Origin: Deltaproteobacteria bacterium
GTDB taxonomy: Bacteria; Myxococcota_A; Polyangia; Fen-1088
Length of the DNA: 64,000 bases
Assembly (NCBI GenBank): GCA_033763315.1
Contig: JANRKS010000035.1
Coordinates: 174,291-238,290, forward strand
Reading direction: 5' to 3'
In this document: positions 5,421 through 38,585 of the stretch, one piece after another
How positions within the stretch are numbered: position 1 is the stretch's first letter
How the letters are laid out: every line of letters begins with the position of its first letter
The notes under the pieces: model-generated
Databases searched by the model: none
Seen by the model: only the letters and a program-made list of their open reading frames with translations
Told to the model about the DNA's origin: nothing
Translations under genes and position numbers: made by a program

Positions 5421-5494
5421 GGGGTGGTAGTTAAGTTGGTTATAACGCCGGCCTGTCACGCCGGAGGCCGCGGGTTCAAGTCCCGTCCACCCCG
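5421..5494 (+). tRNA. trnD: tRNA-Asp (GTC), CCA not encoded
   Basis: Acceptor stem GGGGTGG/CCACCCC; anticodon arm CCGGC-CTGTCAC-GCCGG; T arm GCGGG-TTCAAGT-CCCGT; discriminator G. Confidence 0.97.
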
Positions 5495-6931
5495 CAACAC
5501 AAGTACCAGAATCTCCTCACTATTTTCCTCGCCGTGAGTGACCGTGAGTGAGGCTCCGCCGAGACCTCGGGGAGTGCTCCCGCCAGAAGCGGCCTTGGGC
5601 TGATCTTCGGGGCTGCCGTGTTGCCCTCCGGTGGTGCTAGGACCGCCAGCACCCCCGGACGCCGGCGATGAACTCCCGCCAGCGCCTGGCGGAGTCTGCG
5701 GCCCATTGGAACCACCGGGGCCGCCTTTCGCGGGGTCCTGAGGGTCGTCCATGCGCAGCTTGAGCATCTCCTGGCACAAAGCCGTCCACGCACTCTTTCC
5801 GTGCAAGCGGGTGTAGCCATCGAAGACGTTCCGCCGCGCACCGTGGGTCATCCAGCGCAGTAGCTCGGGGTTGACGCCGTCGGCGATCGCCAGAGAAATG
5901 AACGTGGCACGCAGGTCGTGCTGGCCCCGCTTACGAGCGCCATCGGCGATCTCGACCGAGAGGCCAATGCGCTCCATGCCTTCACGGAACTTTCGAAGCA
6001 TGTGGTTCGCCGAGCGCGACCGCCCCTCGCGCGAGGGCACGAGCAGATCGTCGGGCTTCGCCGCCCTCCCCAAGGACTGCACCAGGCCACCGTCGGGCTT
6101 CAACCAGTCGTTGAGCAGGTTGCGCAGGATCGGATGGACGGGGACCAGCCGGACGCGCCCGGTCTTCGTCCCCTTCACCACCTTCTTCTTGGTGTTGTAC
6201 GACGTTGCGATGGTGATCTGGCCGAGCGGTTCGAGGTCGCGCCGGTAGTCCCGCACGCGAAGCGCCGCGACCTCGCCGAATCGTGCGCCGGCCGCGAAAA
6301 ACATCGTGCCCCAGAAAACCCGACGGTCCTGTGGGATGCGCTCGTCGGTGATGAGCTTAAGGATCTCGCTTCGCTCGTAGACCGCGCCCTCGCGCCAATC
6401 CGAGTTGGCGTCGCGCTTCTCGGGGATGAGGCGTTTTTTCACCTGCCACGGGCTGCTTCGGAGCAGCCCATCGACCACAGCGTCGTCGAAGATTCGCCTG
6501 GCCAAGAAAAAGATGTTTCGCTGCGTTCGGGCGGCCAGACCGCTCTGCAACTTGAGGTAACGGACATGATCGACGGCATGCTGGGGTGTGATCTCGTCGA
6601 TGCGAAATCCGCCGAGTCGAGGTAAGAGCCACTTCTTGGCGCGGGATGCGTCGTCCATGTCTGAGGACAGCCCATCCTTCTTCCGGTCGGGCAGCCAGCG
6701 GTTGACAACGTACGTCTCGAACGTGACGGGGCCGTTCTTGCCTCCGCTCACCTTGGCCGCGGCACGCAGTCGGCGCTCGACCTGGCGTGCAACATCGCGC
6801 GCCCGCTCTTCACCGTCCGGAGCGTCAGCCGGGACTTCGGTCTTCTCGCGTGCAGTGCGACCGTGTTCGTCCTTGTAACCCACCCACCAGAGAGGGCTGT
6901 CCGGCCGCTTGTAGGCGTATGCCATGTTCAC
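5456..6931 (-). CDS. int: Tyrosine integrase; 3' end reads through attL into the tRNA antisense strand
   Basis: Catalytic residues R (GARFGE), K (TKTG), HxxR (HDLR), H (MTHG), Y (FDGY); arm-binding-like N-terminus; ends LRGGRDLNPRPPA*. Confidence 0.92.
   Translation of the reverse strand: MNMAYAYKRPDSPLWWVGYKDEHGRTAREKTEVPADAPDGEERARDVARQVERRLRAAAKVSGGKNGPVTFETYVVNRWLPDRKKDGLSSDMDDASRAKKWLLPRLGGFRIDEITPQHAVDHVRYLKLQSGLAARTQRNIFFLARRIFDDAVVDGLLRSSPWQVKKRLIPEKRDANSDWREGAVYERSEILKLITDERIPQDRRVFWGTMFFAAGARFGEVAALRVRDYRRDLEPLGQITIATSYNTKKKVVKGTKTGRVRLVPVHPILRNLLNDWLKPDGGLVQSLGRAAKPDDLLVPSREGRSRSANHMLRKFREGMERIGLSVEIADGARKRGQHDLRATFISLAIADGVNPELLRWMTHGARRNVFDGYTRLHGKSAWTALCQEMLKLRMDDPQDPAKGGPGGSNGPQTPPGAGGSSSPASGGAGGPSTTGGQHGSPEDQPKAASGGSTPRGLGGASLTVTHGEENSEEILVLVLRGGRDLNPRPPA
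5475..5497 (+). repeat. attL core (23-bp direct repeat)
   Basis: TTCAAGTCCCGTCCACCCCGCAA, identical to 38563-38585. Confidence 0.95.
5532..5551 (+). repeat. Tandem 10-bp repeat, candidate integrase arm-type sites
   Basis: CCGTGAGTGA x2, 35 bp inside attL. Confidence 0.5.
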
Positions 6932-7320
6932 TTCCTCTCCCGACGAGCCCGCGACTTTTCGAGGATGCGGTCCGCCTGATCCTCGTTGGACGCGAGGTCG
7001 TTGTTGTCTATTCGTCTCGCCTCAAGAAATTGGTGAAGTTCTTTCGGGTCGATGAGGTTGCCGCGAGGTCCGTAGCCCTTGAGCCCCTCCAGACGCCACC
7101 GTCGAAGAGTCTTCGGTGATCGAGAAATCAGCGTGGCGGCCTTCGTGATTGTAAGGAAGCGGCGACCACCGCCGGAGCTTGCTCGCCGAGCCGGGAGCCG
7201 CTGCTCAAGGAAGTTCATGATCTCCCGCCTGAGGTCCGCAACTGCCTCCTCAACAGCGGCGCGGGCGACCTCGCCAATCGCTTCGTCGACTGAAGCTCGC
7301 CGAGCAGTGACCCTTGTCAT
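6928..7320 (-). CDS. Excisionase-like helix-turn-helix protein
   Basis: FLTITKAATLISRSPKTLRRWRLEGL...LIDPKELHQFL (HTH_17/MerR-like); stop overlaps the integrase start. Confidence 0.75.
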   Translation of the reverse strand: MTRVTARRASVDEAIGEVARAAVEEAVADLRREIMNFLEQRLPARRASSGGGRRFLTITKAATLISRSPKTLRRWRLEGLKGYGPRGNLIDPKELHQFLEARRIDNNDLASNEDQADRILEKSRARRERK

Positions 7321-7778
7321 CTATCGCTGCTCCCGCGGGCCGACAACCGATCAGCCACAAGGATCATCTGCAAGTGGGTGGCGTCCGCAATTGTCCCCGG
7401 AGTTCCTCGCTTCCCGAGGCTGAGGATCTGCTCTCGCCGGAGCAACACTTCGGAGCACAAGAAGTCCAGCATCAGCAACACGTCATTCTCGGTGAAGATC
7501 TCGTGTCGCAGGAGAGTGATGAGAAAGCAGATCTCGTCGTAGTAGTGGTCAAGAAGCTCATCGGTGCACGGATGAGCTTTGGGGAAACCTTTCTCCAGCA
7601 TCTCCCAGACTCTGGATGTCGCGTACTCCCACAGATCGATCTCTTGGTCCGTTGGAAACCCATCCTCGGTCGAGGTCTCACCGAGGCCCAGAGGATTGCC
7701 GAAGAAGCCGCGAGGCGAATTCTTGATGCATTCAAAAAGACGCGCGCGGGGCTCCGAGAAAATAGGCACAATTCTCAT
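7317..7778 (-). CDS. Hypothetical protein
   Basis: 153 aa, ATGA overlaps with both neighbours. Confidence 0.65.
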   Translation of the reverse strand: MRIVPIFSEPRARLFECIKNSPRGFFGNPLGLGETSTEDGFPTDQEIDLWEYATSRVWEMLEKGFPKAHPCTDELLDHYYDEICFLITLLRHEIFTENDVLLMLDFLCSEVLLRREQILSLGKRGTPGTIADATHLQMILVADRLSARGSSDR

Positions 7779-37526: not shown

Positions 37527-37804
37527 AGCCGCGGGTCCTCTGGCAGTTCGTAGTAGCTCCCGTGCGAGGTCCGCCGAATCATTCCCTCGTCGGCCATCCA
37601 CTCGTACAGGTCCAGCATTTCGGAGTCGTTATCCGCCGCGAGCACGTAGTGGTCGCCGGTCTGCCGTCTGCGCTCTCGAATGCGCGCCAGCTCCTCGCGG
37701 GCGCGTTTGGCGCGGCCCCTGTTCTTGAACGCCTTTATGCCTACCTTCACGGCATCGACTGCCTTGTGGGCATTGCCGACGACGGCGAGCGCTTCGATAC
37801 CCAT
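37523..37804 (-). CDS. Hypothetical protein (93 aa), possible winged-helix C-terminus
   Basis: GGAGG RBS before ATG 37804; ...LYEWMADEGMIRRTSHGSYYEL. Confidence 0.55.
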   Translation of the reverse strand: MGIEALAVVGNAHKAVDAVKVGIKAFKNRGRAKRAREELARIRERRRQTGDHYVLAADNDSEMLDLYEWMADEGMIRRTSHGSYYELPEDPRL

Positions 37805-38372
37805 CTTGGGGGCCTCCGGAAAAGAGATACACCTCGCCCCATCGGGGGCGGCCCTTGGTGATCTAACCACCCCCGTGGCGTCGTCTAGTGACTTCTGCAA
37901 GAGACTAAGATTGTCGCCCCGCGCCGTACGCGTCGCCGGGCCGATCACTTGACGACCAGCCAACGCCCGCCCACTTGTTTGCAGCAACTCAACCTCGTCC
38001 TCCGTGAGGCTTACGTGTCCCCGTCCCCGTCCGAGGCTGTCGTCAATGCGTTCTGGCGACGCGGTCGCGTCGTGCGCGTTAACGTCGGGGCTGGATCCAG
38101 GAACGACTGGGCAGAGCGAACCGATCTCTCGAACAAACACGTCGGATTCGTAGCGCGCGGCGAGCGGCTGCCGTTCGTCCCCGTCCTGGTCCGGCTCGCT
38201 GAAGCTGGACAAAGATGCTTACCGACCGAAAGTGAGTGGGATGCGCGGGATCGGCCGAGTTGATGGCGTCCACACCTGCCTCGCGAGTTCCATCCGCGGT
38301 TCCGGTCGTGAGGGCAACATTAGGGCGGCATATCCCTCTGCGTCATCCAGCGCCACCTCGTTCGCCGCCACC

Positions 38373-38562
38373 TTAAGTCGCCCGATCCAGCAGCCGTCCG
38401 AGCGCTGCATGGACGCGACTCACGATCTCACGATGAGCGTCCACGGGTGGCGCACTATGTCCGCATGCGGCACAAGGCGCCGGGTCGGATGTCGTTGAAT
38501 TTGTTATAGAATGTCCGCTCACGTCCACGAGTGTCTCGATGACAACTTCGGGCTTTTTCGTA
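38373..38562 (-). other. Cryptic integrase C-terminal coding segment, joined to int only in the excised attP circle
   Basis: Same frame through the attR core (LRGGRDLN), then 62 open codons TKKPEVV...CAAC...LLDRAT*. Confidence 0.7.
38419..38523 (+). repeat. CTCACG(AT) repeats, candidate right-arm integrase sites
   Basis: CTCACGAT x2 at 38419-38434 and CTCACG at 38518; reverse complement of the CGTGAG core near attL. Confidence 0.4.
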
Positions 38563-38585
38563 TTCAAGTCCCGTCCACCCCGCAA
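38563..38585 (+). repeat. attR core (duplicated tRNA-Asp 3' end)
   Basis: TTCAAGTCCCGTCCACCCCGCAA, identical to 5475-5497. Confidence 0.95.

Follow-up and report, generated by a model that had tools for sequence, protein, structure and literature searches.

In the 64,000-nucleotide stretch of a Deltaproteobacteria bacterium genome analysed here (assembly GCA_033763315.1, contig JANRKS010000035.1, positions 174,291 to 238,290; hereafter the window, to which all positions refer), a 33-kb integrative element (5498-38562) was probably put into the 3' end of a tRNA-Asp gene by a tyrosine integrase of the family of the myxophage Mx8, and this integration rewrites the integrase gene (int) itself. 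The attachment (att) site of the free element (attP), i.e., its core and both candidate arms, is located inside the 3' part of the int open reading frame (ORF), downstream of the region encoding the catalytic domain. Recombination at the core thus exchanges the last 62 codons of the gene for five, or five for 62. This design is not special to the element of the window but is common across the integrase family.

The attachment site and both integrase forms

The integration target is a tRNA-Asp(GTC) gene (5421..5495, plus strand), the sole tRNA gene that ARAGORN detects in the window, whose 3' part is now derived from the element. The att core is an exact 23-bp direct repeat, TTCAAGTCCCGTCCACCCCGCAA, present at the left junction (attL, 5475..5497) and at the right junction (attR, 38563..38585), no strand being assigned to either copy. 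It spans the tRNA gene from the T-loop to the 3' end, plus three more bases, and the bases flanking the two copies differ on either side. This repeat is far beyond chance, and a search of the 7.63-Mb, 40-contig assembly for a 21-nt part of the core, with up to two mismatches, found these two sites only. Immediately after attR, a hairpin followed by a U run (38587..38623, plus strand; -23 kcal/mol, z -4.4, equally stable shuffles 0/200) is a candidate for the original tRNA-Asp terminator. This is its simplest explanation and would make position 38586 onward host flank. A simple consensus scan for terminators did not list this hairpin and gave one other terminator-like site, at 38535-38552.

In its integrated form, int (5456..6931, minus strand) encodes 491 amino acids (aa), with a catalytic part (about aa 1-395), a low-complexity linker rich in Gly, Pro and Ser (aa 396-478) and the core peptide (aa 479-486). 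The core, antisense to the tRNA, is translated in the int frame as LRGGRDLN, and the protein, whose C-terminus reads ...LRGGRDLNPRPPA, then ends with PRPPA and the stop. The stop codon TGA (5456-5458) overlaps the anticodon (5455-5457), so that the five-residue tail as well as the stop codon come from the host tRNA gene. At attR, the int frame goes on after LRGGRDLN for another 62 residues (38376..38561, minus strand), with the motif C-A-A-C, up to a TAA at 38375-38373; this 62-codon tail doubles as the candidate P' arm of attP. A scripted in-silico junction of the two halves at the core gives a single ORF of 548 aa without internal stop. A free circle would therefore encode a protein made of the catalytic domain, a disordered linker of about 85 aa, the core peptide and the 62-aa tail. 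An earlier note on this DNA had proposed the reading LRGGRDLN at both cores, the end PRPPA inside the tRNA gene, the 62 open codons with CAAC at attR and the rebuilding of a longer integrase by excision; translation and the uninterrupted attP junction bear out all of these in silico.

The integrase matches phrog_1 (integrase) in PHROGs (E 1.5e-32). It was assigned to no Pfam family at E 0.01, although relatives do carry PF00589. In an alignment with 14 relatives (A1), R217, K256, H363 and Y373 do not vary and H338 and R341 vary hardly at all; we take these six to be the catalytic residues of tyrosine recombinases (Arg, Lys, His-x-x-Arg, His, Tyr). One of the closest relatives is P0003, an Int with 59% identity to that of the window by BLASTP and 65% in alignment A1. 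When 50,697 phage records were searched with tblastn, the only matches were four records of Myxococcus phage Mx8, to whose Int (IntP/IntX) the integrase is homologous (38.6% identity over 362 aa, i.e., aa 37-398; E 3e-57 to 8e-57).

The resemblance to Mx8 extends beyond the integrase. The attB of this phage is located in tRNA-Asp genes, and the attP of Mx9 also lies inside its int gene. In both the window and Mx8, int is antisense to the 3' half of a tRNA, and the T-arm part of the Mx8 core matches that of the window tRNA-Asp. A Uoi-type excisionase gene is found directly upstream of int in both systems. In the window, this gene (6928..7320, minus strand) overlaps int by 4 nt and encodes an HTH_17 protein of 130 aa that is homologous to Mx8 Uoi (43% identity over 49 aa, E 1e-8).

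In both systems, the core also lies within the 3' part of int, as do flanking repeats, which in the window are candidate arm sites. In the region from 150 nt upstream to 200 nt downstream of the core (int sense), CGTGAG/CTCACG is the most enriched hexamer, with five copies against 0.24 expected. Two candidate P-arm repeats, CGTGAG on the plus strand (5533-5538 and 5543-5548), lie inside the int ORF; they read CTCACG in int sense and are placed 10 nt apart, 41 and 51 nt upstream of the core. Three candidate P'-arm repeats, CTCACG on the plus strand (38518-38523, 38427-38432 and 38419-38424), lie within the 62-codon tail in the opposite orientation, 40, 131 and 139 nt downstream of the core. All five copies are therefore contained in the ORF of the free form. 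They seem to mirror the repeats annotated in Mx8 intP: record D86464 places the recombination site (2387-2415) inside intP (1154-2755), with six surrounding repeat regions and 112 codons after the site. This record agrees with the earlier note, which states that Mx8 has its attP inside int.

The tail also contains a conserved block, GGACATTC in int sense (38509-38516). It is found exactly 46 nt past the core in four related elements (loci L020, L202 and L216 and the window; in G020 it is GAACATTC), with the same rare codons kept, which read Gly-His-Ser in three elements and Glu-His-Ser in G020. From this sequence conservation, the block is probably a protein-binding site of the P' arm. A scan of viral contigs for the core together with GGACATTC gave no match.

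Spread of the design across the integrase family

A full HMMER search of 1.84 billion representatives gave 2597 matches to the integrase at E <= 1e-3 and 573 at E <= 1e-30 (cluster representatives). When 41 genomes around that of the window were searched, 13 proved to have a relative. Labels that read myxobacterial or "delta proteobacterium" are carried by 27 of the 31 related loci from species genomes.

Among 12 near relatives, a tRNA gene (Asp, Leu, Gly or Glu) adjoins int in eight, and in each of these the stop codon of int falls within that tRNA gene; a ninth locus is cut by a contig end within the tRNA gene. Among 31 further loci, several of which reach contig ends, the int stop is inside a tRNA gene in nine (Asp, Gln, Glu, Asn or Lys), and a tRNA gene is found at most 300 nt away in three more. 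Taking both sets together, 17 of the 43 relatives have an int stop within a tRNA gene, the targets being tRNA-Asp, Leu, Gly, Glu, Gln, Asn and Lys. The protein ends tell a similar story: RGGRD[LS]NPRPP[AP] is the C-terminal end of 9/14 homologues in alignment A1, and for 20 database proteins that contain RGGRD[LS][NK] as core peptide, the end is PRPP[AP] in 13, another 5-aa sequence in one and an extension of 69-245 aa in six. The stop of the window int (5456-5458) is the antisense of U35-C36-A37 of tRNA-Asp, so that any element that crosses tRNA-Asp in the same frame must end with NPRPPA and a stop; the identical C-termini of these 13 database homologues are due to this end supplied by the tRNA.

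Other members seem to represent the long form. In loci from viral contigs (int match plus 3 kb on each side), a tRNA gene was detected in 0/14, and several have long extensions, like Mx8. The extension past the catalytic domain has a median length of 100 aa in 153 family proteins. By eye, many of the long members and of the viral-contig forms end in a helical module, ALxALDxGDxxxAxxLL, or in a second motif, DPSGYLxxAxRAGxxV; an iterated profile recovered the former in 12 of 132 extensions. Furthermore, metagenomes were scanned for the core with a base after it that does not belong to the tRNA, which gave at least 80 loci. Many of those listed are attR sites, where the int frame runs for 80-91 codons and encodes helical end segments.

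It should be emphasized that publications have described this mechanism since the 1990s and that the window integrase is a homologue of the founding example. What may be new is its use by a replicative defence island without detectable virion genes, as well as its breadth across the family. Literature searches on this breadth gave only passages of PMC4701971, PMC6070905 and PMC4383910, and one passage of PMC4701971 presents att sites within the cognate integrase gene as a feature of "very few integrative elements". The loci described above suggest that int-internal att sites are routine in one integrase clade, where they also serve non-phage defence islands. A wider view can be proposed, to which we give somewhat less than an even chance. 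The self-rewriting int would be the usual arrangement in a large clade of mobile elements with at least seven tRNA targets, in which a conserved helical C-terminal module is cut off at every integration; it would act as a general commitment switch, adopted here by a self-replicating defence island without detectable virion genes. For practical work this has limited consequences: both island finders and annotators should be prepared for int ORFs ending inside a tRNA gene, and the protein should be judged only once its free form has been rebuilt.

Two groups of loci show further variations. A tail type of 86 aa occurs on two metagenome contigs, L143 and L157. In L143, a stop is found 7 codons upstream of the core (attR context), while in L157 the frame is open over at least 104 codons upstream, up to the contig start, which is likely the free attP form. 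In a subgroup of the family (L043, L044 and L045; P0020, P0025, P0052, P0130 and P0143), the core peptide is WRR(R/W)ESN(P) and is followed by divergent continuations. ARAGORN found no tRNA gene adjoining L043-L045, whose target may be a tmRNA gene or a tRNA gene missed by this program.

Proposed behaviour of the two forms and possible role of the tail

Like Mx8, the element has the C-terminus of its integrase replaced on integration. It differs from this phage by the position of its crossover core, which here goes from the T-loop to the 3' end of the tRNA gene, and by the tail itself: the two tails show no significant likeness (a loose 25% identity), and the Mx8 tail does not match the profile of the helical C-terminal module. 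The situation of SSV1 is another one. Its integration splits the int gene into two parts and disrupts it, whereas in the window the catalytic domain remains intact and only the distal tail is swapped.

Passages of several papers describe related arrangements. In the Islander paper (PMC4383910), the integrases of Mx8 and of SSV (SSV1-type fuselloviruses) are said to extend across attP. According to a passage of PMC6070905, the attP of Mx8 is inside int and integration makes a new 3' end. In the part of PMC4701971 that deals with Mx8, integration replaces the 112 C-terminal residues by 13 (62 by five in the window) and the modified integrase is less active, which agrees with the change of the Int C-terminus stated in the earlier note. 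The same source reports that in streptococcal integrative and conjugative elements with serine integrases (rumA), attR lies inside the integrase gene, and that the protein of the excised form has another length and another C-terminus than that of the integrated form. These serine integrases belong to an unrelated recombinase superfamily, and their target is a protein-coding gene.

By analogy with Mx8, the following scheme can be proposed. The long form would be made from an episomal circle, presumably replicating by its own polymerase and primase-helicase, and would be the more active integrase, leading to efficient integration. The short chromosomal form would be less active and would limit excision, while the Uoi-like protein would set the direction. 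If the short form is indeed less active, the island, which carries the defence systems Hma and Gabija, would stay put unless the Uoi-like excisionase is expressed; the stability of this Hma/Gabija island may hinge on the tail switch. That the element behaves in this Mx8-like way has, in our view, nearly even odds. The interpretation in the earlier note is partly supported: its structural part holds, and control of recombination activity or directionality by the swap is suggested by the analogy with Mx8. Besides, as the two forms are at hand naturally, they could serve to study how a tyrosine recombinase is tuned by a distal C-terminal tail.

The scheme supposes that the tail is a working peptide, and an argument for this comes from G023, the closest relative found, whose attR copy lies 5.2 kb from its tRNA gene. 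The window tail shares 46% identity over 46 aa with the attR tail of G023 (BLASTP E 1e-9), a score reached by 0/2000 shuffles. The 42 aligned codons include 14 identical ones, seven with synonymous differences only and 21 with residue changes, nucleotide identity at the three codon positions being 0.64/0.67/0.50. In the catalytic part, amino-acid identity with G023 is 64% and nucleotide identity by position 0.73/0.74/0.56; in the linker, these values are 26% and 0.55/0.41/0.42, and the amino-acid identity of the tail is 50% (42 aligned codons). By these alignments, the tail is much better conserved than the linker that precedes it. Weaker homologous tails start at the cores of G020 and G006, with scores reached by 15/2000 and 21/2000 shuffles, respectively. 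A class-wide search with a profile of two tails found only these two further tails starting at a core, the 18 other weak matches lying in long unrelated frames.

Many other observations weigh against a working peptide. The earlier note had asked whether the tail stays open in homologous elements; this holds for G023, whose int frame is open for 78-79 codons past the core, but the openness is not specific to the int frame. At the 59 distinct metagenome loci listed that have sufficient flanking sequence, frames open over at least 75 codons are found in the int frame at 21, in +1 at 19 and in +2 at nine, so that openness at attR is uninformative. The 62-codon frame of the window is also free of stops in 2167/20000 mononucleotide shuffles of its 186 nt (11%). 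Its GC content by codon position (0.68/0.55/0.55, versus 0.66/0.46/0.81 in the catalytic part of int) lacks a coding-type third-position bias. In an ungapped comparison anchored at the core, and thus free of protein-alignment bias, the third position of the first 26 tail codons is not relaxed in any of the three comparisons with the window, identity by position being 0.58/0.46/0.54 with G023, 0.54/0.46/0.42 with G020 and 0.58/0.62/0.54 with G006. The block conserved there is the DNA motif GGACATTC, whose rare codons are fixed, which fits a binding site better than a peptide. The window tail does not match the profile of the C-terminal module (ALxALDxGD...), for which the G023 tail scores about 13 bits and the top decoy about 10. 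A profile of whole tails, built from 19 attR tails of 74-113 aa taken from the 28 long tails among the 59 loci, gives the window tail 1.2 bits, a score at least equalled by 451/1000 shuffles. Among the matches listed, the best BLASTP hit of the window tail to the 28 metagenome attR tails of at least 50 aa has an E value of 0.6. The window tail is also short, 62 aa versus about 80-91 aa in many relatives: it halts at ...AALGRLLDRAT, where that of G023 goes on with AALDAGDTARVEGLL (AALDAGD...). Finally, the G023 element is itself a remnant of about 5 kb, whose int lacks the N-terminal part.

These observations could be explained if the tail peptide were an incidental read-through of residues useless to the enzyme, selection acting on the DNA sites only (CGTGAG and GGACATTC). 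The arms of attP must flank the core, and GC-rich DNA would keep the int frame open across the P' arm, as expected from the shuffles and from the other attR frames, which are open about as often. The conservation of the first 26 codons as DNA rather than as codons, the missing third-position GC signature and family module, and the poorly conserved low-complexity linker of about 85 aa between the tail and the catalytic domain all point in this direction. However, the distal tail (..REIVS..RVHAAL) is common to G023 as protein, and seven of the 21 identical residues are encoded by different codons (e.g., Ser by AGT versus TCA). The contrast between tail and linker in amino-acid identity, the conserved protein modules that relatives' tails carry across different att cores and the different activities of the two Mx8 forms (in the passages of PMC4701971) also argue against useless residues, so that we consider this explanation rather unlikely. 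A fixed relic, no longer able to excise, whose long form is never made and whose tail is a decaying remnant, seems still less probable. Such a status would explain a tail shorter than in relatives and ending early relative to that of G023, and it would recall the state of the G023 element. Nevertheless, the two 23-bp repeats are identical, int is full length with all conserved residues kept, the uoi-like, polymerase and primase-helicase genes are long intact ORFs, and no stop interrupts the 62 codons.

The evidence that the window tail matters is thus mixed. The tail region looks doubly used, as the P' arm and as coding sequence, and its distal part appears protein-constrained in the comparison with G023. 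A candidate longer ancestral tail, continuing past the stop after a frameshift, was rejected, as the shifted frame matches G023 at only 2/17 residues by eye. A CxxC pair (CNGC, CNEC, CADC, CVDC, CPAC or CAAC) recurs in the tails of P0155, P0053, P0026, P0112, P0135, Mx8 IntP and the window. It mostly stands just before the terminal helix, but after the helix in Mx8, and other members have a single Cys.

Cargo of the element and its neighbourhood

Mx8 is a tailed phage of 49.5 kb, whereas the element shows no virion gene that is convincing but does have Hma and Gabija, together with genes for a family A polymerase and a primase-helicase. The replication genes, assigned with Pfam and PHROGs, encode a family A DNA polymerase with a 3'-5' exonuclease domain (7775-9943, minus strand) and a DUF3854/DUF927 primase-helicase (9654-12827, minus strand). 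The defence genes, all on the plus strand and recognized by PADLOC and Pfam, encode HmaA (15487-18960; PADLOC E 6e-184), two copies of HmaB (18953-21964 and 25891-28902; 3e-111 and 7e-100), GajA (21961-23769; 3e-121), GajB (23766-25616; 2e-120) and HmaC (29513-32389; 1e-127). Gabija (GajA and GajB) is therefore nested between both HmaB copies. These methylases have 1003 aa each, and their genes contain DNA repeats (21083-21960 and 28030-28898) with 70-76% identity. The arrangement looks like a duplicated Hma methylase into which Gabija was inserted, or between whose copies it was captured.

No capsid, portal, large terminase or genuine tail protein was found by Pfam in 22 ORFs of the island or by PHROGs in 17, ORFs without assignment covering about 6-7 kb. 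The matches to "tail" and "small terminase" sit on MBL-fold and HTH domains. The element has two MBL-fold proteins, one of which matches PDC-M48B. As Pfam and PHROGs give no convincing virion gene next to the Hma/Gabija cargo, "non-virion defence element", the term used in the earlier note, is a fair description.

The tRNA-Asp locus is perhaps a hotspot of defence systems with an older island in it, for which no ends were detected. Outside the att-bounded element, a BREX system (BrxE, BrxA, BrxB and BrxC; PADLOC E 3e-46 to 0) starts 95 nt to the right of attR and is followed by a Schlafen/AlbA_2 protein (38680-44512, and on to 46203). The GC content of this region is lower (0.55-0.59).

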